Of a stretch of DNA of 64,000 nucleotides, positions 7,471-60,045 are shown piece by piece. The DNA lies in assembly GCA_041666505.1 (NCBI GenBank), contig JBAYGU010000001.1:477-64476 (forward strand), given 5' to 3'. The number at the start of each line of letters is the position of its first letter. Position 1 is the first letter of the stretch. This stretch comes from Candidatus Buchananbacteria bacterium. GTDB taxonomy: Bacteria > Patescibacteriota > Patescibacteriia > 2-01-FULL-39-33. Made by a program: the position numbers and the translations under genes. The notes below the pieces were generated by a model. The model made no database searches. It was not told where the DNA came from and saw nothing but the letters and a program-made list of their open reading frames with translations.

Positions 7471-7508
7471 ACAAAAAAGCGACCCGTTCTGGCCGCTTCT
7501 TTTTTTTA
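7471..7508. terminator. Bidirectional hairpin terminator downstream of ileS
   Basis: AAGCGACC-cgttct-GGCCGCTT stem flanked by A-run and T-run. Confidence 0.45.
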
Positions 7509-23805: not shown

Positions 23806-24990
23806 CTAGAACTTCACAGTTCCGCTAATTGCACCTGTCCAGACGTCAGCAGAAATTTCCCGGCCGTCAGCCTTATTGCTGCCCCAGCCGCGGGAAAGTC
23901 CCACTGTCAGGTCCCACGACTTCGCGATTTGATAATTGAGCCGACCGGCGACAAACACTCCGTCCGTATCCGGCGTCATGAAGTCCGCCGTCTGGTCAGG
24001 AACTGCTGCGGACATATAGCCCGTGCCGCCGCCGATCGTCAGGCGATCATTCACTTTGTAACTAGCGCCGACTCGGGCCGCCCAATTATCCGCCCAACCG
24101 GTCTTGACCGGCTTGGTGAACGTGAGCTTGTCGAATTTGATATCGACCGACTCCAACGAACTCTTGGAGTAGCCGTACCAAGTCCAATCAGCCACTAAGA
24201 GCAATCGATCAGTCGCCTTCCAAGCTCCGGAAACTTCGAGTTCGTCCGGAAATTGGAAATCAGCTTTGATCTCATCCCGCAAATGGAACGGACTCAGGAT
24301 TTCCGTGCGGCCATTCAAACGCGCCTTAATGCTCGAAGTATAATTCATTCCGAACGCCCAATTCTCATTCGGCTGATAAAACACGCCAACGGCCGCGCCG
24401 ATTCCGGCTCCGATCGCTTTCGTGTCCGTCTCGATCGGCAGGTTATGCCGATTGATGTCGAATGGCCCGTGCCACGTCAGCATAGTGTCGGCAATTATCA
24501 AGCCGAGTCCGATTGACCACTGATCGTTTAATCTCTGAGTAACGTACGGTTCAATGTACGTCCCGGATATAAGAGTCCGAGAATCTATCCTGCCGAAGCT
24601 TTTTTCGAAGCTCGCACCCATGCCGAATTCCGTCCGGATCTTCAAGCCGGTGACGGTATCGCCATCGACCCTTTGAGCCCAGCACAGATACGGCAATGTA
24701 TGCGCCACGTTCTTCGACTCAATAGTTCGACCAAATCGATCCGTAATACGGAATTTCGGCACCATGGTTTCGAAACCGAATTCCAATTGGCTGCCATCAA
24801 TCTGGATCATACTGCCCAGATTCTCCGGCAGCCATGGTCCGTCCGGATTCGAGCCATTGCCGACACCTGTCGGCCCAGTTACAGCCAAGCGATCCAATCC
24901 TCCGCCATAGGCCAAAGGATTAAACATTACGGCCATAATGGCCAAAAGTACCAACAAAATTAACTTTACTGAATTGTAATGAACTTGCAT
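23806..24990 (-). CDS. FadL/OmpP1/TodX-like outer-membrane beta-barrel protein
   Basis: Signal peptide, amphipathic beta-strand periodicity and a C-terminal ...ISGTVKF ending in Phe. GC of about 56% far exceeds neighbouring genes. Confidence 0.55.
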   Translation of the reverse strand: MQVHYNSVKLILLVLLAIMAVMFNPLAYGGGLDRLAVTGPTGVGNGSNPDGPWLPENLGSMIQIDGSQLEFGFETMVPKFRITDRFGRTIESKNVAHTLPYLCWAQRVDGDTVTGLKIRTEFGMGASFEKSFGRIDSRTLISGTYIEPYVTQRLNDQWSIGLGLIIADTMLTWHGPFDINRHNLPIETDTKAIGAGIGAAVGVFYQPNENWAFGMNYTSSIKARLNGRTEILSPFHLRDEIKADFQFPDELEVSGAWKATDRLLLVADWTWYGYSKSSLESVDIKFDKLTFTKPVKTGWADNWAARVGASYKVNDRLTIGGGTGYMSAAVPDQTADFMTPDTDGVFVAGRLNYQIAKSWDLTVGLSRGWGSNKADGREISADVWTGAISGTVKF

Positions 24991-25137: not shown

Positions 25138-25164
25138 CCGCCGAATCGCTTCGGCGGCCATGAA
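25138..25164 (-). terminator. Rho-independent terminator (CCGCCGAA-tcgc-TTCGGCGG + T-run)
   Basis: Perfect 8-bp stem. An identical copy lies at 30073-30099. Confidence 0.6.
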
Positions 25165-25166
25165 TG

Positions 25167-25862
25167 TTATTTCTCGCTTTCCAGTCGAGCTTTTAATAAA
25201 AATATCGTATCGGTTCGCAATTTCGCTCGAGCCCAATCTTTTTGAGAAGCCGTCAACATCTCTCCCAGGCCATCGAGAATATGGCGATTGTCCATCTTTT
25301 CCAACATCTTAATGCATTTAGCTACAACTTCCTCAAAAGTCAGCTTAGCACGATTTTCCACTAATTTCTTATTGATCGGCCACATGTTTTTGGCAAAAAA
25401 ATAAACGTCATAGACATCGCGACTCGTCTTGCCTATCCTCTCATACATCGCCATGAGTTTATTGGCGAACATATCTTCCTTAACCATAACCGGCATAGAG
25501 ATGCCCAGCAACGTTTTCACTTCGTATTTCGATCCGAAATTCCGTCGATTGACTTCGATTTTTATATTCTGAGACTTCAAGTCATGCGCGATAATAACGA
25601 TCAGATTAAATCTCTTAATCTTGGAATCAATGATCTTACCGTAGCCTGCGGCTATCTTTTGGATTTTTTCAAACACTTCCTTTTCCTTATCAACAACCAA
25701 AAGATCAAGATCGATATCGACGGAGTTGCGATCCAGGCCGTAAAACATCAAAGCCGCCGTTCCGCCTTTAAAACCCAAATACGGGGACAGCGAAGTGTCA
25801 GAAAAAATATCTTTCAATATCTGCAATAGAATATTCTTATGTTTGGGATAGTCTAATGTCAT
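25167..25862 (-). CDS. abiEii: AbiEii/AbiGii-family nucleotidyltransferase toxin (type IV TA)
   Basis: Hallmark LGFKGGTAALMFYGLDRNSVDIDLDL. Confidence 0.7.
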   Translation of the reverse strand: MTLDYPKHKNILLQILKDIFSDTSLSPYLGFKGGTAALMFYGLDRNSVDIDLDLLVVDKEKEVFEKIQKIAAGYGKIIDSKIKRFNLIVIIAHDLKSQNIKIEVNRRNFGSKYEVKTLLGISMPVMVKEDMFANKLMAMYERIGKTSRDVYDVYFFAKNMWPINKKLVENRAKLTFEEVVAKCIKMLEKMDNRHILDGLGEMLTASQKDWARAKLRTDTIFLLKARLESEK

Positions 25863-26476
25863 ACGGTTTGAATGTTATCCAGTTTATCGTTTTTATAATA
25901 ATTGAAATATTTTTCAACTTTCTTAGCCATTCTTTGATTGCGGTAAATCGGCAAAATTTCAAAAACTTTTTTCCAGTCCAAAACGCTCAGATTGTCGAAA
26001 TGATAATCCTTGCTGATATATATCCGATCCAAAAATGCCCGCTCTTTTGTCGCGACAGCCACGCCATTTACATGCTCGATCCCCGCCGTATTGCTCAGAA
26101 CAAAATCCTTCATCCTGATAAACGATATTTTTTGCCCGTCCGCCTCAATCTCCCTCGTAACATAGGAAGCAACAAAAATATTTCCGTAATACTGGAAATT
26201 CACTCCGGTCCGAGTCAAGACTGTTTCAAAACTGACATAAGAGGGAGTATAGATCCGCGTAGCCAATTCAAAACGATCATAATTCTTATCCTTGGCATAA
26301 ATGCCGCGATGGACCCTGATTAATTTTCCCCTTTTTACATAATTGCTCAATCTAACCCTGATTTTAGCCTCTCCTATTTCACCCCACAGCAAAGAAATGT
26401 CTTTTGTGGAAAAGACAGTTTTTGGCGATCTGAGCAACATATCGATATATTGGCCTTTTGTGAGTTTATTAACCAT
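25859..26476 (-). CDS. abiEi: AbiEi-family antitoxin/transcriptional regulator
   Basis: RGKLIRVHRGIYA signature of the AbiEi N-terminal domain. It overlaps the toxin by 4 nt. Start is taken at MVNKL (26476) rather than the longer track ORF ending at 26545. Confidence 0.65.
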   Translation of the reverse strand: MVNKLTKGQYIDMLLRSPKTVFSTKDISLLWGEIGEAKIRVRLSNYVKRGKLIRVHRGIYAKDKNYDRFELATRIYTPSYVSFETVLTRTGVNFQYYGNIFVASYVTREIEADGQKISFIRMKDFVLSNTAGIEHVNGVAVATKERAFLDRIYISKDYHFDNLSVLDWKKVFEILPIYRNQRMAKKVEKYFNYYKNDKLDNIQTV

Positions 26477-26517
26477 ATACTTACTAGATGTTAGTTTAAA
26501 ACTTACTAACAGTACAA

Positions 26518-26545
26518 TTATAGCACATATATAAAATATATGCAA
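26518..26545 (-). promoter_or_regulatory. Putative sigma70-type promoter for abiEi (TTGCAT-16/17-TATAAT)
   Basis: On the minus strand, TTGCAT lies at 26545-26540 and TATAAT at 26523-26518, about 45 nt upstream of ATG 26476. The recurring TTTTTGTCTAAAATTAGCTAA motif lies immediately upstream. Confidence 0.35.
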
Positions 26546-26591
26546 GTATTTAATAATTAGCTAATTTTAGACAAAAAGATACCAGAATTAA

Positions 26592-28046
26592 CTAATGCCT
26601 CATTTTCGATGTAAATAATCTGGTCGGTTCAAAATCAGTCTGAGCAAAATTAATGCCCAATTTCATCAGCCACACAAAATATATTACTCCCGGATCATCT
26701 CTAAGTTGTTTCGCTATGAATTTGTCCACCAGATTATCAACCGCTTTCACGCTCAATTTATCAGAAAAGCTCGGCAGTTCTTTGGTCAAAAAATTTATGA
26801 TATTTGTATTGAACTCACCCTTATCCAAACGATCCAATTGAGAGGCAGCAAAATCATAATGCGGATTCAATTCCAAAGCCATATGTAATAATTCCTCTCC
26901 GGCGGGATTGCCTGCAGCCAACATAGACGATCCTTTATTGGCAAATAAGCGATAAATTTCCCGATCGGTTGTTTTTGATGATAATAATTCCTGGAAACCC
27001 TTATCATATGATTCCATTGCCAGCCCTGGCTTTCCCTGTTTAGTAGCTTTCATCGCTTTCTCCGCATAATCCATCCAGCCTTCAGAACTGAATATCCCGC
27101 TAATATAACGAGGGGTTGATTGATCGCGATCCGGCCTGACTTTCCCCTTCATCTCATGCGGGCATTTACCACTAAGTGATTTATGCGGGGAATAATTGCT
27201 AAGATCGCAAGACGCTTTCACCAATAAATCCATGTCATCTTTTTTCAGGTCATGATGAGCCAAACCCATTAAGATCGAAATAGGGAAAGTCGCTAAATCA
27301 TCATTAGCGGTTTTATTAATCCATTTCTTGACTTGACTCACAGAAACAAAAGGCGAGATGCCGCATACATTAAAGGCTGCCTCCGCTTGCTTTTCTGCCT
27401 TTTGTTCGTTCATCGTCAGATCAATTTTGTCGCTTGCATTTTCCGCCTCATCGGCTTGCTGTCTGCCAGGCTTATAAAGAATTTCATAAACCACCTGGGG
27501 CGTTATAATATCACCAGATTTCCTAAAATATTTTTTTGCCTGCTCGGTCATCATTGTATCCAGCATTTGGCATGTGCCACTGGCGAATTCATAACGTTCT
27601 CCGATCTTAGCTACTCGACAAATAATCGTCTGACCCGGAAGAAGCAATCTGGCTCCCGCATATTCCCGCACCGCATACTCCTTATCCTGTTGCAGGCTTT
27701 CAACTTCTATCCGCCCGGGTTTGACTGAGGTGACAGAGAAAAAACCATATTCATTATCTAACATATCCCTTAAATCCGATAATTCATTATCAGTTAACCT
27801 AAGAGGATTATTTTTAACAAAATCAGACAGCGGCGTCTTGCCATTAGACAGCTTGAAATCAAATACCAGCCATTCCATAAAAAGCATATTAACCGGATCC
27901 ATGTCATCATCGGCAATCAAATCGCCATCTACGACATCACCAATGGAGCGGCCAAAAAATTCCAAACTTGCTCTTTTAATATCCGCATTACGCCCGAGAT
28001 CGTAAAGATAATGATCTAGGACGTCAGAAATTGCATTTTTTCTCAT
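26592..28046 (-). CDS. Hypothetical 484-aa protein with C-terminal TPR-like repeat, flanked by AbiE modules
   Basis: No recognisable catalytic motif; positioned between two type IV TA pairs. Confidence 0.4.
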   Translation of the reverse strand: MRKNAISDVLDHYLYDLGRNADIKRASLEFFGRSIGDVVDGDLIADDDMDPVNMLFMEWLVFDFKLSNGKTPLSDFVKNNPLRLTDNELSDLRDMLDNEYGFFSVTSVKPGRIEVESLQQDKEYAVREYAGARLLLPGQTIICRVAKIGERYEFASGTCQMLDTMMTEQAKKYFRKSGDIITPQVVYEILYKPGRQQADEAENASDKIDLTMNEQKAEKQAEAAFNVCGISPFVSVSQVKKWINKTANDDLATFPISILMGLAHHDLKKDDMDLLVKASCDLSNYSPHKSLSGKCPHEMKGKVRPDRDQSTPRYISGIFSSEGWMDYAEKAMKATKQGKPGLAMESYDKGFQELLSSKTTDREIYRLFANKGSSMLAAGNPAGEELLHMALELNPHYDFAASQLDRLDKGEFNTNIINFLTKELPSFSDKLSVKAVDNLVDKFIAKQLRDDPGVIYFVWLMKLGINFAQTDFEPTRLFTSKMRH

Positions 28047-28082
28047 ATTTTTCGTTATGATTATTCTTGTATGATTACAGGC

Positions 28083-29372
28083 CTACTTCAACAGATCATC
28101 CAGCTCGCAAGACAGCAAGGCGGATTTATTTAGCAAGATCTGCTCATTGGGATTCAGATTATCCGCAGTCATCCGAATAAGCTTGGTGGTGATGCTGTCG
28201 CCTAACATAATCCTGCCGGTTTTCTTGAAATATTTCTCTGTCATTTGAAAAAAGTGGGTCGCATACTGTTTGAGAACTTCCTGCGGAGCGAGCCGACTAC
28301 TTATACCGTTATTCGTAAATTCTGTAATCTTCATTAAATTATCATCTATCATATTATTCATTTTACCATCTGTCGCAATAATCCAATCTTCATCAATCGC
28401 ATATTTAACAAGAACAATTTTCCCATCATCTGTTTCATACAAAAATTTAAACAAAAAAATATCCTTAAACATATCCTCAAAAATTACCAACTTTTGAAGA
28501 ATTTTAATATCTCTAATTTTATATTCATCCAAAAGACGCAGATAGCTCTCTCGCCAATTCTTTAACCAATTGGCAATGAAAGCCTGATCCAAGAAAAGCG
28601 GGGTCAAATCATGTTTGAGATTGGCATCCGTCTTCGGACTGTTTAAAATTTTTATCGTAACCTTGTCGAATAATTCTTTCGGATTCTTAATATCGATACC
28701 TTTGGCGATGAGATAATCGAAATCAGGCACGATTTTTTTGCCCATATACCACAGCAGGTCATAAATATCGCGCCCTTTTTCTTCATAAATTTCTTTCCCT
28801 GTCCCGCGAGAGCCGCGCAGAAAAATTGCGGCTAATTTGCTTGCCATGAGCGCACCCATATTATATGTCCAGATGACAAATGACAACTGTCCGCGATTTA
28901 TCGGCTGGCGGTCAATTACGGTTTTAGAAGCGGCAAAATGATTCAAATCAATTTTTACGTGGATCTGATCCGAAGGCCAGCCAAGGCTAAGTTCCTTGCC
29001 GACATGGAACTTCAAGATCAATCCTCTGCCGGCAGTTATTTTTAACGTTAAGAAACCGGCTCCGGCTCCATATGTATTTGCAAAATAATCTTCAATCTCC
29101 CTTTTCAATTCGCCCAAAAATTCCTCTGTCACCTCATGAGAAACCTCAAAATCCAAATCAACCGACATACGATCCAGGCCATGGATTATGCGCAGCGCGG
29201 AACCGCCATACATGACCCAATCGCCGTATTCCTGATGATGATAAATAAAATTCAGGACATAAAACTGCAGCTCTTCTTCAAGGGCGTTAAGGCGCGTCTC
29301 GGCATCGATACCGCCATAAGCTGACAGGCTCTCGATTTTCCTTTTCAAAATTGCGATTATCTGTTCGCTCAT
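28083..29372 (-). CDS. AbiEii-family nucleotidyltransferase (second, 429 aa)
   Basis: VMYGGSALRIIHGLDRMSVDLDFEV. Confidence 0.65.
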   Translation of the reverse strand: MSEQIIAILKRKIESLSAYGGIDAETRLNALEEELQFYVLNFIYHHQEYGDWVMYGGSALRIIHGLDRMSVDLDFEVSHEVTEEFLGELKREIEDYFANTYGAGAGFLTLKITAGRGLILKFHVGKELSLGWPSDQIHVKIDLNHFAASKTVIDRQPINRGQLSFVIWTYNMGALMASKLAAIFLRGSRGTGKEIYEEKGRDIYDLLWYMGKKIVPDFDYLIAKGIDIKNPKELFDKVTIKILNSPKTDANLKHDLTPLFLDQAFIANWLKNWRESYLRLLDEYKIRDIKILQKLVIFEDMFKDIFLFKFLYETDDGKIVLVKYAIDEDWIIATDGKMNNMIDDNLMKITEFTNNGISSRLAPQEVLKQYATHFFQMTEKYFKKTGRIMLGDSITTKLIRMTADNLNPNEQILLNKSALLSCELDDLLK

Positions 29373-30004
29373 ATGAGTATATTTTTAACAAATGAATAAA
29401 ATTTTTCCTGCTCTTCGATATCCATCTCGTCAAAATCAATGCGCAATTCCTCGATCATTGGATCAATATCTTCCAGCTTAATGCCGCGGAACTGGCGAGT
29501 TCTGAAATACAGAAGATCAAATAATGCTTTCGCCGGAGAAGCGATAAAAAAATCAAACCCCCCTGCATCAGATCCAGGCCTTCCCGTTACTAAGTGAAAA
29601 TCAGAAAAGAGCTCTTTTTTAATCGACTGATAGGCGAAATTGCCCGCCTTGGCCTGATAATCCTTAGTTACTTTAATGGTTACTGATGTGATAGAATTGA
29701 TCGATTCGGTCGCTAAGCCATAATACTGCAAGGCTGCCCAAGAACTGATATAAGACGGCACACGGATAATATTAGCAAGATAAAATGAATATGAACCGTC
29801 ATGCTTATACTTATCATAAAAAGCAGAGGTTACATATAAACCGTTTTTTAGCTGAAAAATCTCATTATATTTCAAAAATCGGCTGATATATGTGTCAACC
29901 GTGGAATCCTTAAGCCCCAACTGCTTACCGAGCTGATATACGGCGTTTTTATTGAAGTGGGGTAATGTTTTTAACTGCTCAAGCAGGTTTTTCTTGCTTT
30001 TCAT
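29369..30004 (-). CDS. AbiEi-family antitoxin (second)
   Basis: LKNGLYVT and an AbiEi-like C-terminal domain. It overlaps the downstream NTase gene by 4 nt. Confidence 0.6.
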   Translation of the reverse strand: MKSKKNLLEQLKTLPHFNKNAVYQLGKQLGLKDSTVDTYISRFLKYNEIFQLKNGLYVTSAFYDKYKHDGSYSFYLANIIRVPSYISSWAALQYYGLATESINSITSVTIKVTKDYQAKAGNFAYQSIKKELFSDFHLVTGRPGSDAGGFDFFIASPAKALFDLLYFRTRQFRGIKLEDIDPMIEELRIDFDEMDIEEQEKFYSFVKNILI

Positions 30005-30072: not shown

Positions 30073-30099
30073 AAAAAAACCGCCGAATCGCTTCGGCGG
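30073..30099 (-). terminator. Terminator downstream of coaC (apparently identical hairpin to 25138-25164)
   Basis: CCGCCGAATCGCTTCGGCGG preceded by A7 (T-run on minus). Confidence 0.6.
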
Positions 30100-32795: not shown

Positions 32796-32805
32796 ATTAT
32801 TATTA

Positions 32806-32843
32806 AACCCCCTCTAACTCCCCCTTTCGTAAAGGTGGAGAAT
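32806..32843. repeat. RPE-like half element abutting the RNHCP start codon
   Basis: AAACCCCCTCTAACTCCCCCTTTCGTAAAGGTGGAG. On the minus strand its G-rich arm (GAGGGGG) sits 9-12 nt upstream of the RNHCP ATG as a Shine-Dalgarno. Confidence 0.6.
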
Positions 32844-38896: not shown

Positions 38897-39679
38897 TCAT
38901 TTTTTAACCGCGATGGCTAACAGATTATCGCCGGTCAAGATGGAAACCGATCCCCGGCTTTTGCTGGCATAACTCAAATAATCAATTGAGAACCCGGCTG
39001 ACGTCAGGAGATTTTTCATCTCTCTTTTCGTAAATGAATGTACGTATCTGACGTGCCACTCGCTTTGGCGCAAGTTGGCCTTCCAGGGCACGAAAGCGTC
39101 AGAAATATTGTAGACTCCGAGATTGAATTTTTCAACCAGATTGAACAGATATGGATAGTAGCGGAAATATTTGCGGCCATTAACATTCCACAAATTCCAA
39201 TTACTGATCACTAAGCGTCCGCCCGGCTTTAAGGCCTGATATAAATCTTTCAATATTTTTAATCTTAATGCGCGCGTAGGAATATGATGCAAGGCGGCAA
39301 TCATTAATTCGAGATCAAATTGATTCGAGGCCAAATGCAAATCAACCGCATCCGCAACTTCGAACTTGAAATCAGACTTATTCTTATACCGGTTTTGAGC
39401 GATTTCTATCAGCTCTTGGGAATTATCTAAGCCGAGATACTCGACTCCGGAATTATCAAAAAGTTGAGCCATGCGTCCGTTGCCGCAGCCAAGGTCTAAA
39501 ACATTGTCTCCCCTTTTTACATACTTGGCGAAATCTCCGAATCCCTCCCACCATTTGCCGCGGGTATCAGAAAAATCAGCTGCAATTTCATTATAAATCT
39601 TCGGCGTTTCCTCTAATATGCGATTGACATTTTGTCGTTTCATAAGTATAATAAGGTTTAAACTATGCCAGAAATCCAT
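38897..39679 (-). CDS. Class I SAM-dependent methyltransferase
   Basis: VLDLGCGNGRMAQ motif I. Confidence 0.7.
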   Translation of the reverse strand: MDFWHSLNLIILMKRQNVNRILEETPKIYNEIAADFSDTRGKWWEGFGDFAKYVKRGDNVLDLGCGNGRMAQLFDNSGVEYLGLDNSQELIEIAQNRYKNKSDFKFEVADAVDLHLASNQFDLELMIAALHHIPTRALRLKILKDLYQALKPGGRLVISNWNLWNVNGRKYFRYYPYLFNLVEKFNLGVYNISDAFVPWKANLRQSEWHVRYVHSFTKREMKNLLTSAGFSIDYLSYASKSRGSVSILTGDNLLAIAVKK

Positions 39680-41338
39680 TCACAAATCATTCTAGACATC
39701 ATCAAAGGCAAGCCGCAAAGCGATGCTGATCTTTTTAATATTGTCAGAAAATCCACCGCTGGCCTCAAAATGGCTCCGCCGCCCAAGGCCGTACTGTTAA
39801 AAGCTTACCATAAACTGGCAAAAAGTGGAAAAATAAAATCGAACACAAATATTGCTCAATTACTAACTAAGCGAGCCGTGCGTACTCTTTCCGGCGTAGC
39901 AGTTATTTCTGTCTTAACCAAACCGACAACTTGCCCCGGAAACTGCCTTTTCTGCCCGACCGAGAAAAATATGCCTAAATCATACCTTTCCAACGAACCG
40001 GCGGTCATGCGGGCTATTTTAAACGATTTTGACCCCTTCAGACAGGTCGAAATGCGCCTTAAAGCGCTTAAAGCCAATGGCCACTCGGTAGACAAGATCG
40101 AGCTGATCGTCATGGGCGGCACCTGGAGCTACCATACACCAAAATACCAATCCTGGTTCATCAAACGTTGCTTCGAAGCAGTCAACGGCAAAGAAGCCAA
40201 AACTTTGGCGGAAGCACAGAAAAAAAATGAATCAAGTAAGCACCGCGTCATCGGCCTAACTCTAGAAACCCGACCAGATTATATCGACGAAGAAGAAGTG
40301 AAGCGACTAAGAAATCTTGGCTGCACCCGGGTAGAATTAGGCATCCAGCATATTGACGACAAGATATTGAGATTGAATCGCCGCGGCCACAACACCAAAC
40401 AAAGTATCAATGCTATCAAGTTACTCAAGAATGCCGGTTTTAAAATCAATCTTCATCTGATGCCGAATTTATACGGCTCGACGCCAGCCAAAGATTTAGC
40501 AATGTTTAAAAAAATCTATACTGACGGCAATTACATGCCGGATATGGTCAAAATCTACCCCTGTGTCGTCAATGAGCATGCCGATTTATACAAATTATAT
40601 AAGCAGAAAAAATATAAGCCCTACACGCAAAAGCAATTGACTGATTTGATAGTCAAAATAAAAAAAATCACTCCGCCCTGGGTGCGCATCGCCCGATTGA
40701 TCCGCGATATTCCCGAGGAATCGATTGTCGCCGGCAACAAGACGACTAATCTGCGGCAGCTAATAGCGCTCACCGCATCTAAGGATGGCTGGAGCTGCAA
40801 GTGCATCAGATGCAGAGAAGTCGGAAGATCACATAACATGGAACATGGAACATTAAATGCAAAATTAGTCAGTAGAAAATATCAAGCAAATGGCGGTACG
40901 GAATATTTTTTAAGTTATGAATCGCCCGACAAAAAAATTCTTTATGCCTTCTTGAGGCTTCGGATCAAACCCCCTCTAACTCCCCCTTTCGTAAAGGGGG
41001 AGAAAAACTTCCTAACATCAATTCAGCAAGGGAACGATTCCTCCCCTTTACGAAAGGGGAGGCTAGGAGGGGTTTATCTGCCTGAACTAAATGGAGCAGC
41101 CTTGATCCGTGAGCTGCATACTTATGGTCAGGCGACGGAAATCGGCTCTAAGGGCAAAGTCCAGCACCTCGGACTGGGACAAAGACTACTTTCGGAAGCA
41201 GAAAAAATCACCCAGCAAAATAACTTGAATAAAATTGCTGTCATTTCCGGCATCGGCGTCCGCAGTTATTACAAGAAATTCGGCTATAAACTCGAAGGGA
41301 CTTATATGGTGAAAAATTTAACAAAAAAGACAAAATAA
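39665..41338 (+). CDS. elp3: Elp3-like radical-SAM / GNAT acetyltransferase (tRNA wobble-uridine modification family)
   Basis: CPGNCLFCP radical-SAM cysteine triad and a C-terminal GNAT (QHLGLGQRLL). Carries a ~37-aa repeat-encoded insert. Confidence 0.8.
   Translation: MPEIHSQIILDIIKGKPQSDADLFNIVRKSTAGLKMAPPPKAVLLKAYHKLAKSGKIKSNTNIAQLLTKRAVRTLSGVAVISVLTKPTTCPGNCLFCPTEKNMPKSYLSNEPAVMRAILNDFDPFRQVEMRLKALKANGHSVDKIELIVMGGTWSYHTPKYQSWFIKRCFEAVNGKEAKTLAEAQKKNESSKHRVIGLTLETRPDYIDEEEVKRLRNLGCTRVELGIQHIDDKILRLNRRGHNTKQSINAIKLLKNAGFKINLHLMPNLYGSTPAKDLAMFKKIYTDGNYMPDMVKIYPCVVNEHADLYKLYKQKKYKPYTQKQLTDLIVKIKKITPPWVRIARLIRDIPEESIVAGNKTTNLRQLIALTASKDGWSCKCIRCREVGRSHNMEHGTLNAKLVSRKYQANGGTEYFLSYESPDKKILYAFLRLRIKPPLTPPFVKGEKNFLTSIQQGNDSSPLRKGRLGGVYLPELNGAALIRELHTYGQATEIGSKGKVQHLGLGQRLLSEAEKITQQNNLNKIAVISGIGVRSYYKKFGYKLEGTYMVKNLTKKTK
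40967..41075. mobile_element. Full-length ~109-bp palindromic mini-element (RPE-like) inserted in-frame in the elp3 GNAT domain
   Basis: Terminal inverted repeats AAACCCCCTCTAAC / GCTAGGAGGGGTTT and two internal stems CTCCCCCTTTCGTAAAGGGGGAG / CCTCCCCTTTACGAAAGGGGAGG. The ORF stays open across it. Confidence 0.7.
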
Positions 41339-50037: not shown

Positions 50038-50110
50038 TTCATCAGCTTAACTTATTATCGGTATTCTGTCAAACTAATAATTATGATATAATTTACTTAT
50101 TAGATATTTT

Positions 50111-50224
50111 CCCTCCCCTTTTTTCAAAGGGGAGGCTAGGAGGGGTTTTGTTGGAATTAATTAAACCCCCTTTCGATGCTCCTTATGGTCGCATCCGAAT
50201 CCCCCTTTGAAAAAGGTGGAGAAT
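50111..50224. repeat. Two tandem partial RPE-like units in the intergenic region upstream of the PGI/PMI gene
   Basis: CCTCCCCTTTTTTCAAAGGGGAGGCTAGGAGGGGTTTT (50111-50149), followed by AAACCCCC...CCCCCTTTGAAAAAGGTGGAGAATAAT (50164-50224). Confidence 0.6.
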
Positions 50225-50247
50225 AATGCAACTCAATAATTAAATCT

Positions 50248-51368: not shown

Positions 51369-51776
51369 CTAGCCCTTCAAAACATTATTAGTCAAATTAT
51401 CCATAACGAAGGCAGTGATAGCATAAGCAGCAAAAATAATAATGATACCAATAATAGCCTGCTGGATCATTTTTTTCGCTTTTTCTACTTTCTTGCCTTC
51501 TCCGCCATCAGTCATCCAAAGGAACCCAGCCCAAATAATGTAAAGTACCAAAAGCACGCCTAAAAATCCGATTAATATTGATACTAAACTTCCAATCCAT
51601 AAAACCAAATCCTGACTAGTTCCGGTACCAGAAAGCTGCGCATTAGTGTTAAAAGCATTCAAATTAGCCAGCCAACCATCATTGGCGCCAAAAGCCACCA
51701 ACGGCATGCCCATCAGCACGCTCAATCCGGCAAACGATGTCAAATACTTGCCGTATTTTTTTAATGTTTTCTTCAT
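51369..51776 (-). CDS. VirB2/TrbC-like small membrane protein, paralog 1
   Basis: Sec signal peptide followed by two TM helices with a conserved LW.GF.WMT..GE..KVEKAKKMI core. Tandem with four paralogs. Confidence 0.5.
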   Translation of the reverse strand: MKKTLKKYGKYLTSFAGLSVLMGMPLVAFGANDGWLANLNAFNTNAQLSGTGTSQDLVLWIGSLVSILIGFLGVLLVLYIIWAGFLWMTDGGEGKKVEKAKKMIQQAIIGIIIIFAAYAITAFVMDNLTNNVLKG

Positions 51777-51807
51777 AGTTTTTTTTATTTTAGTTATTAT
51801 ATTTTTA

Positions 51808-52248
51808 TTAATATGGATATACCTGCCCCGGCCCTCCCGGAAATAAAGGATCTAATATTGGCTGACCAGATTGGTTTGTCGTCTTGCTTAAACTGCTCAT
51901 CACGAATTGCGTAATACCATAAGCGGCGAAAACTATTATCAATCCGATCACCGCATTTTTTATCATGTCTTTGGCAGTCTGCACTTTTTTAGCATCATCC
52001 GCGGATAAAAATCCCCACATTATGCCGGCATAAATCAGCACCAGCACCAAGGCGACGCCTAAAAGAGATAAGACAACCCCGACTATAGAGCCGATAAACT
52101 TGACTATGTCGGAATTTTTCTTCAAGTCTGATCCGGCAGCGACATCCAAATTACTATACAAGCCGCCAGCCAGCGCGAACTGCGCGCCAAAAACCAAAAA
52201 AATGACAACAAATGAGATGATTGAATTTCTTATGTATTTATGATTCAT
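51808..52248 (-). CDS. VirB2/TrbC-like small membrane protein, paralog 2
   Basis: Same architecture as paralog 1 (IYAGIMWGFLSADDAKKVQTAKDMI). Confidence 0.5.
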   Translation of the reverse strand: MNHKYIRNSIISFVVIFLVFGAQFALAGGLYSNLDVAAGSDLKKNSDIVKFIGSIVGVVLSLLGVALVLVLIYAGIMWGFLSADDAKKVQTAKDMIKNAVIGLIIVFAAYGITQFVMSSLSKTTNQSGQPILDPLFPGGPGQVYPY

Positions 52249-52307
52249 AACGTAATTCTTATTCCAAGGGGCTCGATAAATCGAAGCCCCTATGGAATAA
52301 AATATTA

Positions 52308-52694
52308 TTAAGCGCCGATAGTGGTGCCTGTAATGGTTTGCAATTGAGAGAAAACAAAACTGGCGATAGCGTAAGAAGCAAAAATAATTATCAAGCCGAT
52401 AATGCCTGAGTAAATCATTTTCTTGGCCTTGTCTACCTTATCCGGCTCGCCGACTGCAGTCATCCAAATGAAGCCTCCCCAAAGGATGATAAGGACTGCG
52501 ATAACGCCCAAGAATCCAAGGATAACCTGGATTATGCCTTTGATCAAATCACTTAAGGTAGTGGTGCCCAGTCCCAAATCAGTCATCTGTGGAATATCTC
52601 CGGCAGCTCCGGCGATAGTCGGCAAGGCTAATAGCCCCAGCACGCCCAGAGTCATGGCTCCGGCAAACATTTTTTTCGTTGTAATTTTTTTCAT
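52308..52694 (-). CDS. VirB2/TrbC-like small membrane protein, paralog 3
   Basis: ILWGGFIWMTAVGEPDKVDKAKKMI core; AxA signal cleavage site. Confidence 0.5.
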   Translation of the reverse strand: MKKITTKKMFAGAMTLGVLGLLALPTIAGAAGDIPQMTDLGLGTTTLSDLIKGIIQVILGFLGVIAVLIILWGGFIWMTAVGEPDKVDKAKKMIYSGIIGLIIIFASYAIASFVFSQLQTITGTTIGA

Positions 52695-52839
52695 GTTTTC
52701 ACCCCCTTTCTCTGTCCAGTGCCCGCCGACCGCCGGTCGCCAATGGCGGAAGCGAGTACGGATAGCAGAGGAAATTGAGACGGCAATTCGGCCATCCCTT
52801 AATATATGAATTAATTATACAGTAAATTGAGCGACATTC

Positions 52840-53190
52840 CTAGCCAGGCGCTTGCAAGACATTCCTTAAGAAGAAAGTGATTACAGCGTAGGCAGTGAAT
52901 ATTATGAATAAGCCCAAAACCGCGTATTTCATCATCTCTTTGCCTTTGTCCACATTCTTCGGATTGACACCCGCCAGCAGATACAGCAATCCGCCATATA
53001 TGAATGCTATGAGAGCGAGAACGCCGGAAATTCCTAATGCCGCTTGAATGAATCTATTGGCTAGAAGCGGAATTGGATTACCAGATTCCAAGCCCAAGGG
53101 ATCGCCTATTTGAACGGCCGCTGCTGCAATTGAGGGCAGGATCAATGAGCCTAAAGCTAATATGGAAAATATTATTTTTTTCATAAACAT
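52840..53190 (-). CDS. VirB2/TrbC-like small membrane protein, paralog 4
   Basis: IYGGLLYLLAGVNPKNVDKGKEMM core. Confidence 0.5.
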   Translation of the reverse strand: MFMKKIIFSILALGSLILPSIAAAAVQIGDPLGLESGNPIPLLANRFIQAALGISGVLALIAFIYGGLLYLLAGVNPKNVDKGKEMMKYAVLGLFIIFTAYAVITFFLRNVLQAPG

Positions 53191-53211
53191 TACAATTTTT
53201 AATTAAGCAAA

Positions 53212-54003
53212 TTAATCAGTATATTCGCAAGAACAATTAAAGTAACCCGGCTGACTCGGAGAAGTAACCGCATTGAATGACCTTGAAACAGTATTAAGTC
53301 TTGTACATACAGCCAAACAAGAAACTTGTGCTTTTTCATCTCCATTAGCTCTTAACGAATCAGTCTTATAAAATGTAGTAACCGCTTGAATTTGTCCATC
53401 AGGCCTAACCGTTCCTGCTGGAACCTCAGATGACCCTGTTGAACCAGTAGCCGCCGCACTCGGAGCCTGAGTATCATATCCTTGGCAAACGCCCCAGCCG
53501 GCTGAACCGCTCACATTCCCGGTTATTTTCGATAACATATTCATTTTATCCGTGCCGCCGATGAGTGTCAGGATAACAAAATTCATAATGGAATAGCCAC
53601 CGAAAATAAAAGCCAAACCAATTATAACCGCCTTTAAAGTTCCTTTGGCTTTTTCCAGATTGGCGGGATTAAATGATACAGTCAAATACATTAAACCGGC
53701 ATAAACGAACATCAAGATAGCCACTGCGCCACTAACAGCCACAATCATATTGGACGCGTTAACGAATACTTGGATGAAATCGCACAAGCCGCATGGCCCG
53801 GAAGCAACAAATGCCGTAGCAGCCTGAGGACCATTCTGTCCCTGAATCGTAGTCGGAGTCTGAGCGCCGCCAGTCGCGCATTTTACATTCGCCAAAATCG
53901 AATTGGACATATCAATTGCCGCCCAAGCCGGAGTCGCAAAAAAAATTGCGGCGATAAGCGCCATGGCGATACTAATTGACTTGATTGGCTTAGAAATAAT
54001 CAC
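53212..54003 (-). CDS. Enlarged VirB2/TrbC-like paralog with Cys-rich extracellular N- and C-terminal extensions
   Basis: Central VYAGLMYLTVSFNPANLEKAKGTLK core. Flanked by CATGG...GPCGLCDF and CQGYD...CLAVC...NCSCEYTD regions. Confidence 0.45.
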   Translation of the reverse strand: MIISKPIKSISIAMALIAAIFFATPAWAAIDMSNSILANVKCATGGAQTPTTIQGQNGPQAATAFVASGPCGLCDFIQVFVNASNMIVAVSGAVAILMFVYAGLMYLTVSFNPANLEKAKGTLKAVIIGLAFIFGGYSIMNFVILTLIGGTDKMNMLSKITGNVSGSAGWGVCQGYDTQAPSAAATGSTGSSEVPAGTVRPDGQIQAVTTFYKTDSLRANGDEKAQVSCLAVCTRLNTVSRSFNAVTSPSQPGYFNCSCEYTD

Positions 54004-55458: not shown

Positions 55459-58400
55459 TTATGGAACTGCAATAGCATTATCCACTTCGCCAGCTGGCGG
55501 TACTTCAAAAATATCTTTAGTATTAATTGCGGTAAATCTTTTTTTCAATCCTTCAAAGGCCGTTTCAGCTGCCCTATTTTGAAAGGTGCGTCTGTCTTCA
55601 TTAAAATAAGACGCCTCCACTAACTTCTTAAGTTGTTCCGTTTTTTTCGAGTCAAAATGGATATCATTAATTTCTTCCGTAGTCAGGCCGCTGAGCCATT
55701 CCCTGGTCTTTTTTTTCTGATCATCCCGAAGCTTTCCTTTATTAAGCAGGATTTCCTTTACTAATTCTTCCAGTGTCTGGCGCTTGGCTTTTGTTTCAGA
55801 AACTTCAACTTTTGGTTCTTCCACTGCTGTCTCAGACTTTATTTCAGTCACGCTTCTTTCACCTTCCTGAAAAGTAATTCCCGGGATTTCCTTTTCCACT
55901 ATCGGCAAGCCTATCGGAACATTGCCTGCTTTTTTTTGTCTCAAATCTTCCAATGCGATACGGCCTCCAGTTTCACCTGCTCCGCCTTTCGGATTATTTG
56001 CGCCAACGGCTTCCGATTCCATATCTTTAGTCCGCGGTCCTTCTAATGGCCGCCTAGGATCGAAGGGCAAAACTGGCGGCACATCCCAATCCTTGCCGAT
56101 CGGCAGCTCAGGGTTTTTCATATCGAATGAGTAGCTGAATTTATTCGTTACTGATCCCGACATAACTCCCGCATCGATATTCTTACCGGATATCGTCGCC
56201 AAAACATGGCTATTGCCGGCATCATCAATAATCCTCAATTCGCCGAAACGGAAAGGTATATTGCCATCCTGCATGCTGTTTTTGGCGCCGAATAATTTAG
56301 AAATGGAATCCCCCAGATTAATCTTGCCTGAGCCGTCAGTCGAATCAGTCAGATAGCTTAAGCCCGCTTTATTGTCTCCCTCTGTCGGGAATATCGCCAC
56401 TTTAAGATGTTTGGCCAGTTCCCCTTTGCTCGCCCATTCAGCCAATTGATCCCTTAATCCGGCCAATTTCGTATCCACGCTGCCGTCAGGATTAGTGCCG
56501 AATTCTTTGACCGCGTCCTTGGCGTTTGCCGATAAATTCTCCAATATTCTAGAAGCATCGACCACGACATTGCCGGACGCATCCTTATTCATATAGAACA
56601 TCTGCTGCTTGCCCTCATGCTCGATCAAGCGATTGAAGAATGATGACATTTTCTTGCCCGGTTCATCATGCCAATCAGCCCGAGCATGCTTAGCCAGCCC
56701 TTCCTGCAGCTTGCTGGCCACGCTGACATTTTCCGTTACTTGCGTGTGAGTCTCATTAGGTATTATTCCGCTTTCTTTTAATGACTTCAATAATTCCGGA
56801 TCGATTCGACCAGTCTTGGGATCGAGTTCAATAGGACTTTTTATAATTGAATTTCCTTTGCTATCCAATAACTGGCCATCTCTGAATGCCAGATGCTGCA
56901 CGGCGCCTTCGCCGGCCGTTCCGTGATCGCCTTTGAACCAATGATACATATGTTCCAGGGCGCTTTCCGCTTTAGACGTTCTGCCCAATACATGCTCGCT
57001 GAATTGCCCAGTTATCCATTGGCCGATCGCACCCGCAGCCAAGCCAGTTCCTGCGCCTATTAAAAAACTCTTTTTTCTTTCCCAGCGTTTATAAGCCTCG
57101 AAATTATTATCGTTTTGTTCGATATTGCCGGTTAAATCAGCTTTGATTTCATTTATCAGCGCTTGCATTTCATGACCATCGGGCGACAGATTGAATTTTT
57201 TTCTGATATCTTTTAACGCCACTTTCAAATCCTTCATAGCGATCAGCTTTGTCTTATGCGCTTCGCCTTCCGCCTCAGAAACGCCGATCAAGTCGACTGA
57301 TTTTTCTTTTTCCAACTCAATGCGCGCCATCACATCAGCGATGGCTTTTTTATCCTCATCGGTCAAATTCTCCCTGGCCATGATTTCCGCCAGGCTCGCC
57401 TGCAATTGCTCGGCGCGCTTAAGGTCATAATTAAATTCCCTGATTTTATTCGTTCTTTTGGCATCATCATCAACTTCAATGCCCAAAGTCGAACGACGCA
57501 AATCCATTCCTCGATCATACTGCAGATCGCGAGAACGGCGCATGGCAGTAAACGTTCCGCCCATGCCGGCACCGATTAAAAGCGGCGCCAGCCACGGCGC
57601 TACTCCGGCAACAGTAACTAGCCCGCCCATTGCCGCCAATCTGGCCGTACCCTTGCCAATCACAGCGCCCGCGATTCCGCCGACTACGCCATAAGTCACA
57701 GGATTAGCTATTACTTTATTGAGTATGGGAATATTTTCTGTCGCGTCGACGAATTTTTCATACCACTTCAAAACCGGCTTCGGCTTGGTTTCATACAAGT
57801 CTTTCTGTTTCAATCCTAACTGAATATCCAAAGCCATCTCCGCCTTGACCTGCATTTCTATATTTGCCGCCTGTTCCGGACCAAATTCCTTTCCTAATTC
57901 TTTCACCTGGCTCTCCACTTGTTTCCGATAACCTTCAGCCAAAGCGAATAAATTATTGGCATACATCAAGCCTTCGGCTTCATCCTCCCGGCCGGTTGCG
58001 CCGAACTTCTTATTCTTGTTTTTCAATAGGGCGATAACCCGCACCTCTACGGTCTGATCGAACTCAGCGCGAGTCATATCGGAAGTGGCATAATCGACGA
58101 ATAATTGACCGACCACCAAATTGATTTCGTCATCTTGCACTAAGTCGCCTTTTTCATCAGCATCCATAACCTCATGAGTGAACTCTTCCAAAACAGCGTC
58201 CAATATCTCATATGATTTGTCAATATTTTCTGATTTGATTCCGCTGGTCAGCATCCTGGCTTCTATTTCCGCCATTAGATTCTTATTGTCCTTGATCGCC
58301 GCCAAAGCCTCTTTGTAATATTTCATCAAATAGCCCTTTTCGCCCAAGCGGACTGCAGCCCGCGTCAAAAAATTAGATTGAGATTTATCCAGCATGCTTC

Positions 58401-60045
58401 TGAGTTTCTGCTCCGCTTCACGCCAAGCCATGGCTTTGACAATTTCCGAGATATCAACGATGAAAATCTTTTCTCGCGATTTTTTAATGACTTCTAACTC
58501 TCCGGCGTTTTCCGGCTTGTGTTCGATCTGCAACTGTTCGACAATCGGATCAACAATCACCTTTTCTTTCGGAACAACTTCCAACTCGCTGGCGTTTCTT
58601 GAATCATGAGTAATTTGCAAAGGCGGTTTTATAACTCTTTTTTTAGGCGGTATGACTTCCAACTCGCCAGTACCCGGCTTGTGTTCAATCTGTAATGGTT
58701 CGTCATATGTGATCTCCAATGGCTTAATTTTCGGTTTTTCTTCCGGTTTCTTATCTTCCTGCAAAACAATCTCTCGACGTTTGCTCATCGCCTCCATAGC
58801 CAGCTGGTAATCCTTGTCAGCATCTCCGGTCGAACGCATATCCAACGACGCCAATACAGCTTCTAATTCCGTCCGCCAATGCTGTTCATCTCCCTTCATG
58901 TCCGGACGAATTTCAAAATATCCCCTGCTATTGGCTTGCAAGGTCTCAATTATACCGTTAATTTTCTTTAATTCCTCATCCAGCTTCTTCAATTTATCCC
59001 GATTAACCTCGCCTTCGCCGTCTTGAGCCGCTTTTTCCGTTACCTGCCTCAATGCTTCACCGGTCTGCAAAGGAAAATTATCAGAATCGACCGCATAATC
59101 AACGCCATCCTGATTAAGCGCCGCACTATTGCCCGCCTCCTTATCGGCCTTGGCCCAAGTCTGCCTCGTGGCATCTACCCATTGCCTTACCCTGCCCCTA
59201 ATAGCGCTTTTATTCGTTGATAAGCCATTATAAACTTGGTGCCAAGCGATTTTTTCTTGATGTTCCTGATCCGTCCCCTCCTTATCGCGTCCGATCTTTT
59301 CCAAAGTCTGTTCATACTGCTTCTTCAGATCTTTCGCCAATCTCGCCATGCTTTCCAAATCCTTTTTACGTTCTGCCAGCTTTCCGGCTTCCGTCTCCTG
59401 GCTCTTGGCAATAAGCTTCAGCTCCTCAATCAAGTCATCAACCGGAATGCCTTCGCGCTGGGAGCGATCATCCACTTTGACCTCAAAAGTCAGGTCAGCG
59501 CTGTCTTGAGCTTTATTTTTTGCATTCTCAACGCTTTTTATGATCCATTTTATGCGGTCGGATTTCTGCGCTTCGGGCAGATTCTTCAATATTTCCAGTC
59601 CTTCATCTACCTGGCTGATTATTTTTCTTCTAATCTCAATATTATTCGCAACTTTTTCCGGAGCCTGTTCGCTTACGTTAACAGTAGTTTCCGATTTCGA
59701 AGAAACTTCAATTTTTGCCTCGAACTCGGCTTTTAAGGCAGCGGCTTCGCGCTGGATCGCCTCAATCTCTTGCATGTCTTTTTGAAGATCCAAATCAGAT
59801 TCCTTGATTCCCAGCTCCCTTAATTCGGCCAATATCCTTTTTAAATCACCCTCAGTTTCCGCATTGATCTTATCAGCGCTTTCTTCCATTTTCTGTTTGA
59901 GCTTATCAAGAATTTCGCCCAAAGACTCCCGCCTGGCCAAGGCAACGTCTTCTGGATTTTTTATTTCTTCGATTTTTGCATCTTTAGACTCATCCATATT
60001 TATCCTATTTAATTTTTGACAGGATCCTTCTAATTTTTTCGTCAT
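55459..60045 (-). CDS. Giant (1528 aa) coiled-coil membrane protein with central glycine-zipper TM hairpin and internal ~25-aa repeats
   Basis: Uninterrupted 4.6-kb ORF. The N-terminal ~780 aa are charged and coiled-coil. A TM block (GVVGGIAGAVIGKG...LLIGAGMGGTF) follows. Three PLQIEHKPGTGELEVIPPKK-like repeats are present. Confidence 0.6.
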   Translation of the reverse strand: MTKKLEGSCQKLNRINMDESKDAKIEEIKNPEDVALARRESLGEILDKLKQKMEESADKINAETEGDLKRILAELRELGIKESDLDLQKDMQEIEAIQREAAALKAEFEAKIEVSSKSETTVNVSEQAPEKVANNIEIRRKIISQVDEGLEILKNLPEAQKSDRIKWIIKSVENAKNKAQDSADLTFEVKVDDRSQREGIPVDDLIEELKLIAKSQETEAGKLAERKKDLESMARLAKDLKKQYEQTLEKIGRDKEGTDQEHQEKIAWHQVYNGLSTNKSAIRGRVRQWVDATRQTWAKADKEAGNSAALNQDGVDYAVDSDNFPLQTGEALRQVTEKAAQDGEGEVNRDKLKKLDEELKKINGIIETLQANSRGYFEIRPDMKGDEQHWRTELEAVLASLDMRSTGDADKDYQLAMEAMSKRREIVLQEDKKPEEKPKIKPLEITYDEPLQIEHKPGTGELEVIPPKKRVIKPPLQITHDSRNASELEVVPKEKVIVDPIVEQLQIEHKPENAGELEVIKKSREKIFIVDISEIVKAMAWREAEQKLRSMLDKSQSNFLTRAAVRLGEKGYLMKYYKEALAAIKDNKNLMAEIEARMLTSGIKSENIDKSYEILDAVLEEFTHEVMDADEKGDLVQDDEINLVVGQLFVDYATSDMTRAEFDQTVEVRVIALLKNKNKKFGATGREDEAEGLMYANNLFALAEGYRKQVESQVKELGKEFGPEQAANIEMQVKAEMALDIQLGLKQKDLYETKPKPVLKWYEKFVDATENIPILNKVIANPVTYGVVGGIAGAVIGKGTARLAAMGGLVTVAGVAPWLAPLLIGAGMGGTFTAMRRSRDLQYDRGMDLRRSTLGIEVDDDAKRTNKIREFNYDLKRAEQLQASLAEIMARENLTDEDKKAIADVMARIELEKEKSVDLIGVSEAEGEAHKTKLIAMKDLKVALKDIRKKFNLSPDGHEMQALINEIKADLTGNIEQNDNNFEAYKRWERKKSFLIGAGTGLAAGAIGQWITGQFSEHVLGRTSKAESALEHMYHWFKGDHGTAGEGAVQHLAFRDGQLLDSKGNSIIKSPIELDPKTGRIDPELLKSLKESGIIPNETHTQVTENVSVASKLQEGLAKHARADWHDEPGKKMSSFFNRLIEHEGKQQMFYMNKDASGNVVVDASRILENLSANAKDAVKEFGTNPDGSVDTKLAGLRDQLAEWASKGELAKHLKVAIFPTEGDNKAGLSYLTDSTDGSGKINLGDSISKLFGAKNSMQDGNIPFRFGELRIIDDAGNSHVLATISGKNIDAGVMSGSVTNKFSYSFDMKNPELPIGKDWDVPPVLPFDPRRPLEGPRTKDMESEAVGANNPKGGAGETGGRIALEDLRQKKAGNVPIGLPIVEKEIPGITFQEGERSVTEIKSETAVEEPKVEVSETKAKRQTLEELVKEILLNKGKLRDDQKKKTREWLSGLTTEEINDIHFDSKKTEQLKKLVEASYFNEDRRTFQNRAAETAFEGLKKRFTAINTKDIFEVPPAGEVDNAIAVP

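Follow-up and report, generated by a model that had tools for sequence, protein, structure and literature searches.

In-frame repeat units of the BoxC/PIT/TM kind in the Elp3 gene of a Candidatus Buchananbacteria contig, and their possible partnership with DUF559 endonucleases

The Elp3 gene and its palindromic segment

We analysed a 64-kb stretch of DNA (the window) from a contig of a Candidatus Buchananbacteria metagenome-assembled genome, a member of the Patescibacteria or Candidate Phyla Radiation (CPR) with about 43% GC. Its subject here is a palindromic segment at 40967-41075, lying in-frame within the gene for the tRNA-modifying enzyme Elp3, which we read as an inverted pair of small dispersed repeat units. 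The host open reading frame (ORF), 39665-41338, specifies a product with Radical_SAM and Radical_SAM_C matches (Pfam). Its orthologs carry the name Elp3 and are mostly 520-530 aa long, and solved Elp3 structures align to it on either side of the insert. We take it to be the bacterial Elp3, a radical-SAM plus GNAT/KAT tRNA U34 modification enzyme. The features of the locus are as follows.

39665-41338, plus strand: host gene Elp3, 557 aa in an unbroken frame (ORF list, Pfam, orthologs and structure matches)
40967-41004, plus strand: type A unit with its C-rich strand on plus, AAACCCCCTC-TAA-CTCCCCCTTT-CGT-AAAGGGGGAG(AA)
41005-41037, plus strand: spacer of 33 nt, which with the flanking AA and TT encodes KNFLTSIQQGND
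41038-41075, minus strand: type B unit, inverted, with its G-rich strand on plus, (TT)CCTCCCCTTT-ACG-AAAGGGGAGG-CTA-GGAGGGGTTT

A sequence-only reading of this DNA had placed a palindromic segment in-frame within the GNAT domain of Elp3, and both the sequence and the intact ORF are as it described them. The two arms, 38 nt each and 33 nt apart, are 82% complementary, and every arm contains a perfect 10-bp stem with a 3-nt loop. RNA folding, which that reading had proposed as a check and which was modelled for Watson-Crick and wobble pairs (ViennaRNA), gave -59.9 kcal/mol (z = -6.3), with none of 200 shuffles equally stable. The same reading took the segment for a single element of about 109 bp, with terminal inverted repeats and two internal stems, adding about 37 residues. 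The palindrome, the sequences named and the insertion itself are all present, but not the unity: the segment consists of two units of 36-38 nt, A and B, placed head-to-head around a 33-nt spacer that is not conserved, and each arm is one unit of a different sub-type. The insert proper amounts to 36 aa, K435-V470 (12 + 12 + 12 codons). Because the closest orthologs (74-78% identity) already have a loop of about 7 aa at this place, the net gain is 29 aa and not 36.

Within the KAT domain the insert has the FLRLR strand on one side and the ELHTYG strand on the other, in the beta-hairpin turn that precedes the catalytic-Glu strand of the acetyltransferase domain; the archaeal equivalent of this site is a 12-residue loop. 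A location in the acetyl-CoA blocking loop was considered and rejected, as that loop (Dmc 390-406) comes after ELHxYG and the insert occupies the preceding turn. In the AlphaFold model of the window protein (mean pLDDT 82.8) the strands 426-434 and 478-486 are confident, and residues 440-469 have pLDDT below 50 and no secondary structure; the model thus predicts a disordered insert. The protein keeps the residues that are invariant among 40 orthologs, which suggests that the enzyme probably stays functional despite the insert. The segment is presumably read through into protein, to judge from the open frame, and its translation would yield the tryptic peptides GEKNFLTSIQQGNDSSPLR and PPLTPPFVK. 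A phmmer search with the 36-aa insert against 1.84 billion representative proteins gave no hits at E <= 0.001; this says no more than that the insert does not form a conserved protein module.

Anatomy and copies of the units

Read on the G-rich strand the unit is CTCCCCCTTT-ACG-AAAGGGGGAG-TTA-GAGGGGGTTT, that is, 10+3+10+3+10 = 36 nt: a pyrimidine C-stem, a loop, the complementary purine G-stem, a 3-nt loop (TTA or CTA) and a mirror-image purine G-stem. On this strand the second loop is TTA in type A of the window and CTA in type B. The type B arm of Elp3 is a 7-mismatch variant, inverted, of the type A 38-nt sequence. Conceptual translation gives KPPLTPPFVKGE for the type A unit and SSPLRKGRLGGV for the type B unit.

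A search for further copies, another of the checks proposed earlier, revealed four more units in the window, one in the gene for isoleucyl-tRNA synthetase (IleRS) and three intergenic, so that three of the six units are inside ORFs and three between genes.

8455-8492, minus strand: solo type A unit, in-frame in IleRS (ORF 7506-10574, minus), peptide KPPLAPPFVKGE
32805-32842, plus strand: solo type A unit, intergenic, between the divergent RNHCP and S1 genes
50110-50147, minus strand: type B variant with the first loop TTTTTC, intergenic, between the DHH and PGI/SIS genes (sequence, profile and finder)
50163-50225, plus strand: interrupted type A unit, intergenic (sequence reading; partial profile match)

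The unit at 32805-32842 stands directly upstream of a conserved TTGACA-N17-TATAAT promoter. The last two units form an outward-facing pair, and in that at 50163-50225 the 3-nt second loop (CTAAC region) has been swapped for a 28-nt insert which is itself palindromic. A unit in the Elp3 loop of locus L055 (about 11315-11370) likewise carries an 18-nt palindromic insert exactly at the second loop, the TAA/TAG position. Breaks or insertions may favour this second loop.

These copies are far in excess of chance. Matches to the 17-nt core number seven in the window, with 0.10 expected, and a finder for triplex motifs which uses architecture only (8-nt stems, at most one mismatch) reported five sites (8457, 32806, 40968-41002, 41040 and 50112) against 0-1 in 20 local shuffles. 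It thus recovered five of the six units, among them all four uninterrupted 38-nt copies. Compared with the copies at 8455 and 32805, the Elp3 type A unit shows 0-1 mismatches (37-38/38 nt identity). One might have supposed that the 36 aa are an ordinary lineage-specific extension of the Elp3 loop, possibly adaptive, with a chance likeness to repeats; the loop does vary in length among orthologs, and the insert is one strand away from the regulatory acetyl-CoA blocking loop. The identity to the IleRS and intergenic copies effectively refutes this scarcely credible alternative, and the predicted disorder of the insert and the lack of any match to its peptide among the representative proteins also speak against it.

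Twenty metagenome loci, retrieved by the core motif, contain units of sub-types A (…CCCCCTCTARCTCCCCC…) and B (…CCCCTCCTARCCTCCCC…) and further variants, arranged solo, in inverted pairs or in alternating clusters. The Elp3 type B unit differs at one position from the B units of several of them (e.g., L015, L018, L020 and L008). In all four clear doublets (window Elp3, L007, L014 and L018) an A unit is paired with a B unit. Between the window, L007, L014, L018 and L024 the doublet spacers vary in sequence as well as length (about 10 to about 40 nt), so that the doublet does not constitute one transposing unit whose interior is constant. This bears upon the idea that the segment is one 109-bp element resembling a MITE, or miniature inverted-repeat transposable element, with terminal inverted repeats and internal stems, which transposes whole. 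Its whole-length folding into one long hairpin and the resemblance of its arms to terminal inverted repeats would be as expected for such an element. The arms occur alone at 8455 and 32805, however, and represent two distinct sub-types, each conserved over many loci; with the variable spacers and no target-site duplication, we regard a MITE-like element as very improbable. What appear to be its terminal inverted repeats are two independent units.

Filled and empty sites

Filled and empty sites were found for all three loci tested, namely Elp3, IleRS and the intergenic unit at 32805; from these sequence comparisons, the units are insertions relative to the orthologous sites. At the DNA level the Elp3 site is empty in L022 and L025. 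Compared with the same two loci, which are syntenic with the window and in which a profile search found no unit in 28 kb, the window has about 42 nt more at 32805, a clean insertion. The IleRS unit adds exactly 12 codons (EDTS[KPPLAPPFVKGE]KNSQF) to the linker between the catalytic and anticodon-binding domains, where the Pfam domains stop at 660 and resume at 716; in the closest orthologs this linker has 9 residues.

An alignment with orthologs had also been proposed by the sequence-only reading, and it bore out the expectation that the segment is absent from the closest Elp3 orthologs. Among L022, L024 and L025 only L024 (P0001) has a doublet, which is diverged and shares the identical junction, straight after the "RI" codon.

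Short repeats can confuse assemblers, and one might ask whether the segment reflects a repeat-induced mis-join in a metagenome contig, the more so as the exact Elp3 product is on record in no other assembly. That is hardly to be expected here: the frame and both flanking conserved strands are intact, and orthologs from other samples have comparable doublets in the same Elp3 loop. The IleRS copy on the same contig, moreover, is found with identical protein and DNA in a second, independent assembly from the Joint Genome Institute (L057).

Tolerance of units within genes

As the unit is 36 nt long, or 12 codons, a clean insertion never shifts the reading frame. Direct reading shows four of its six frames to be stop-free, the two closed frames holding the TAA/TAG of the 3-nt loop. 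Five of the six are used by real genes; in L014 a B unit within the gene for the tRNA-dihydrouridine synthase Dus is read in a normally closed frame, in which the TAG is replaced by CAG. The C- and G-runs encode Pro- and Gly-rich peptides such as KPPLTPPFVKGE and SSPLRKGRLGGV, and the loop-forming nature of such peptides presumably aids their tolerance.

Units beyond the window

Other CPR genes carrying in-frame units are those for DNA polymerase I (three units), Dus (two loci), TsaE (two loci, same site), MurB, a Mur ligase and other Elp3 proteins; a unit is probably also present in-frame in the N-terminus of FolD. Coding sequence accounts for about half of the CPR copies. Within 21.7 kb of L054 there are nine strict motifs; four fall within genes, and one spans the Elp3 stop codon.

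The Elp3 loop is itself a repeated target. In P0021/L053 it contains a doublet in the opposite arrangement, in P0106/L054 another doublet, and in P0053/L055 the unit with the expanded second loop; further Elp3 orthologs have unrelated palindrome-type inserts in the identical loop. Taken with the L024 doublet, these different inserts in other lineages indicate that the loop is a recurrent permissive site and not a one-off. In other CPR lineages in-frame inserts from unrelated palindromic families were seen in loops of the same housekeeping genes: UvrB of L001 (3647-5641), Elp3 P0010, and IleRS P0178 and P0204, with peptides such as ...SRDPSAPLRCGRDDN..., ...SLRFGRDDS..., ...SRDSSVATLPQNDR... 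and ...TLPAGRQES.... In L053 (7256-8680) the DNA immediately upstream of Elp3 contains a reverse transcriptase gene (RVT_1) that adjoins a bAvd gene, a pair resembling those of diversity-generating retroelements, which is not present in the window.

Five loci of 33% GC (L008, L012, L016, L003 and L013), with an AmiC-like amidase gene as neighbour, have B units that are identical to the window Elp3 arm at 37 of 38 positions; their gene content does not look CPR-like. Near-identical units in such contigs would imply sharing across phyla. Among species-representative genomes, a collection to which the source genome does not belong, there was only one exact unit match. Viral contigs had mostly bare hairpins in high-GC DNA; only L035 has a true unit family together with a DUF559 gene. 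A protein-level survey of host range with concatenated stop-free unit translations gave 66 word-sharing candidates, but no scoring match among them.

Relationship to known repeats

Repeats of the BoxC/PIT/TM kind have been known in E. coli since the 1990s. BoxC/PIT (potential intrastrand triplex) repeats were reportedly described by Bachellier in the 1990s and by Hoyne and Maher in 2000. To our knowledge, neither a function nor a means of spreading has been assigned to them.

The TM motif is a C-G-G mirror of 34-37 nt with TTA (type A) or CCG (type B) as its second loop (Holder et al. 2015, PMC4666352). In E. coli K-12 there are 23 copies with the consensus TM_ECO, CCCTCNCCC N3-6 GGGNGAGGG N3 GGGNGAGGG; 3610 occurrences were counted across 262 genomes of proteobacteria, and cyanobacteria too are rich in similar motifs (PMC4666352). 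In the same account inverted pairs are "always" type A plus type B, and the elements are "always located intergenically", have neither promoter nor terminator activity and are "not associated" with mobility genes (PMC4666352).

The units of the window share with these the three-block layout, the length (a core of 36 nt against 34-37 nt), the TTA second loop of type A, the two sub-types, the inverted A+B pairs with short variable spacers and the patchy copy number between close relatives. By architecture, then, they belong to the BoxC/PIT/TM intrastrand-triplex repeats and not to a new family. They differ in the second loop of type B (CTA versus the published CCG) and in their stems, CTCCCCCTTT / AAAGGGGGAG as opposed to CCCTCNCCC of TM_ECO, the 10-nt stems of the window ending in T.A-T triads. 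A TM_ECO regular expression matches only the E. coli loci. Since the stems depart from the consensus, the units represent a different sequence family of the same kind. Two further differences concern their surroundings: CPR copies are found in-frame in essential genes, whereas TM_ECO elements are reported as strictly intergenic, and a DUF559 endonuclease gene recurs beside units, TM_ECO #9 included, whereas the published work found no mobility gene. In-frame colonisation of essential genes is a behaviour unreported for this kind of repeat.

The Rickettsia palindromic elements (RPEs) of Ogata et al. (2000) are said to be single palindromic elements of about 100-150 bp, confined to Rickettsia, which lie in-frame in conserved protein genes, with further copies of the family between genes. 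The sequence-only reading had likened the segment to them and proposed an independent case in a non-rickettsial genome. The behaviour is indeed RPE-like: the segment is missing from the closest orthologs, near-identical copies occur in another gene and between genes, and conserved protein genes acquire in-frame palindromic repeats as extra surface segments. In-frame colonisation stands, while a new RPE-like family does not, the architecture being that of BoxC/PIT/TM. Compared by description only, the module of the window also differs from RPEs in its length (36-38 nt), its triplex-type mirror symmetry, its occurrence solo or in A/B pairs, and its presence in several phyla.

Repetitive extragenic palindromic (REP) sequences and their BIME and REPIN arrangements (PMC3733652, PMC3116915, PMC3333891) offer another comparison, since they too are small GC-rich palindromes (20-40 nt) in inverted doublets and alternating clusters, and occasionally lie inside genes (PMC3733652). 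Mobilisation as REP/REPIN elements by RAYT, an IS200/IS605-type Y1 HUH transposase, would suit the size of the units, their BIME- or REPIN-like arrangement and the genic copies on record for REPs (PMC3733652). Against this, the units lack the GTAG/CGTC tag as defined for REPs (PMC3733652). Their stem is instead preceded by TAA/TAG within C-TAR-C, an unpaired triplet flanked by a third, mirror-repeat block which REPs do not have. No Y1 transposase was found among the window ORFs scanned with Pfam. The gene repeatedly bracketed by units specifies a PD-(D/E)xK DUF559 endonuclease, not a Y1 HUH transposase, and a RAYT-driven origin strikes us as improbable. The resemblance to the REP/RAYT system, in which a small nuclease gene is bracketed by its own repeats ("REPtron"-like), is one of organization.

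Association with DUF559 genes

Eight loci retrieved by the DNA motif alone proved to have a DUF559 (PF04480) endonuclease gene of 108-145 aa tightly bracketed by units. Conversely, DUF559 genes retrieved from PLSDB by protein similarity had units of the same architecture beside them in 11 of the 11 loci inspected: Pseudanabaena (two), Synechocystis (two), Picosynechococcus (two), Deinococcus, Photobacterium, Azospirillum, Sinorhizobium and E. coli. Each DUF559 locus has its own sequence variant of the unit, often on both sides and inverted. With the strict finder a motif was located within 250 bp of the gene in 8 of 12 protein-retrieved loci; near DUF559 genes there were 16 motifs in 10.2 kb, as against nine in 23.6 kb elsewhere, seven of these nine belonging to one array. 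In the 33%-GC loci every unit is beside a DUF559 gene, and in L039, L043 and L049 the stop codon of the gene is the TAG of the unit. Our search of the literature turned up no paper that connects DUF559 or YcjD with these repeats.

The Deinococcus gene lies between paaD and paaZ with near-perfect 55-nt inverted repeats on both flanks. The spacer between paaD and paaZ is 521 nt with the gene and 83 nt without it in a related strain; a base-exact junction was not obtained, the intergenic DNA being too diverged. In E. coli, ycjD adjoins TM_ECO #9, one of just 18 TM loci in 4.6 Mb. A back-of-envelope estimate (18 loci x ~900 bp / 4.6 Mb) puts the chance of this adjacency at about 0.35%. Within the sapF-ycjD-fabI region (L052, 1361-1600) the ycjD stop codon is in a degenerate motif; after it come, in this order, part of the ycjD 3' end as a decayed duplicate and the intact TM_ECO #9. 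At sapF-fabI the place of the eefRABCD operon is taken by ycjD in phylogroups A, B1 and C (PMC12817139); strains lacking ycjD have the eef operon there, and no clean empty site was seen.

What these observations establish is an association, and its direction could be the reverse, with the nuclease gene homing to the motifs. We tentatively suggest, as something possible rather than probable, that BoxC/PIT-type repeats are non-autonomous partners of DUF559 endonucleases (YcjD-like, Vsr-fold PD-(D/E)xK), forming a REP/RAYT-like system with another enzyme in at least five phyla. On the unlikely side, we think, is a real association with reversed causality or none, in which selfish homing-type genes insert at or near motifs, or both accumulate in unstable intergenic DNA, the motifs spreading by recombination, repair or replication errors at non-B DNA. 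A homing endonuclease is known within the Vsr/DUF559 clade (PMC3424549), TM sites have been linked to local rearrangement (Holder et al. 2015, PMC4666352), ycjD occupies sapF-fabI in place of the eef operon, and the unit-rich CPR DNA scanned shows no DUF559 gene. By contrast, the units that flank a DUF559 variant are of a variant peculiar to it, often inverted on both sides as in the 55-nt repeats of Deinococcus; this is the pattern of a cognate enzyme and site, and the exclusive position of units beside the gene in the 33%-GC loci likewise argues for partnership.

In L041 (Synechocystis B12 plasmid) and L042 (Pseudanabaena galeata plasmid) the DUF559 gene and its flanking units are inside, or in-frame with, BREX PglX-type methyltransferase genes; the annotation of L042 makes a single coding sequence of 4.8 kb out of the whole. 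In L040, L043 and L049 the neighbours are DUF1156 genes.

Interpretation

We would give a probability of roughly 0.75 to the following reading: that the 109-bp segment is an inverted A/B pair of dispersed units of the BoxC/PIT/TM type, that in-frame copies are tolerated, and, less securely, that DUF559 enzymes spread them. At the level of the DNA, the units are repeated near-identically in unrelated contexts and the host genes keep their frame. The units would be selfish or neutral DNA which spreads within and between genomes. Copies landing in genes would survive only if the net insert is a whole number of codons, if the reading frame of the unit is without a stop, and if the site is a tolerant surface loop or inter-domain linker. 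In Elp3, translation would continue through the pair and give the beta-hairpin turn a disordered excursion of 36 aa. If REP/RAYT is taken as the model, the spreading activity might be a DUF559 endonuclease encoded elsewhere, in which case the copies in the window would be non-autonomous.

Several points weigh against this reading. The membership of the units in the BoxC/PIT/TM kind presumably holds through architecture and the pairing rule, not through sequence homology. Their mobility is deduced from presence and absence only; neither a target-site duplication nor an excision footprint was seen, and none of the three filled sites is flanked by a direct repeat. Given the L024 doublet, the Elp3 insertion could be old and homogenised instead of recent, and the exact Elp3 product has no record in other assemblies. 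The spacer (33-37 nt) has no significant similarity to ancestral Elp3 loop DNA (P ~0.11-0.13), and this comparison does not separate one double insertion from two single ones. As to the enzyme, no such gene was found when six-frame translations of the whole window and of the CPR loci (about 150 kb of CPR DNA) were scanned with a DUF559 HMM, and Pfam analysis of about 56 window ORFs, which did not extend to those at 55459-60045, 61385-62482 and 63309-63761, found no transposase, RAYT/Y1 HUH or DUF559.

If this reading is correct, a repeat of the BoxC/PIT/TM kind behaves in minimal CPR genomes as RPEs do in Rickettsia. Units repeatedly add Pro/Gly-rich loops of 12 codons to enzymes of translation, replication and the cell wall, and the same Elp3 loop has been struck in several lineages. 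In-frame units would therefore be a source of variation in protein length, and caution is called for in the annotation and structure modelling of CPR proteins. The adjacency of DUF559, including ycjD and TM_ECO #9, provides a concrete candidate for the mobility enzyme, one that can be tested in E. coli. The partnership, if true, would explain both the movement of BoxC/PIT repeats and their in-frame presence in CPR housekeeping genes.

Other features of the window

A scan of the window at Rfam gathering thresholds matched no family, whether of tRNA, rRNA or riboswitches. The same 20-nt GC hairpin, CCGCCGAATCGCTTCGGCGG, stands at 25138-25157 and at 30080-30099, where it brackets a block of about 5 kb (25167-30004) with two AbiEii toxin genes and three ORFs without a Pfam match. 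This block may be an inserted defence island; alternatively, the hairpin may be a duplicated terminator. The gene at 23806-24990 (minus) specifies a FadL/TodX-type outer-membrane transporter (Toluene_X, E = 1e-30), which is unexpected in a Patescibacteria contig because this lineage is usually considered to have no outer membrane. At 51369-54003 (minus) there are five consecutive small genes, all with T4SS_pilin (TrbC/VirB2-like) matches, followed by a gene for a solute-binding protein and then by an ORF of 1528 aa.

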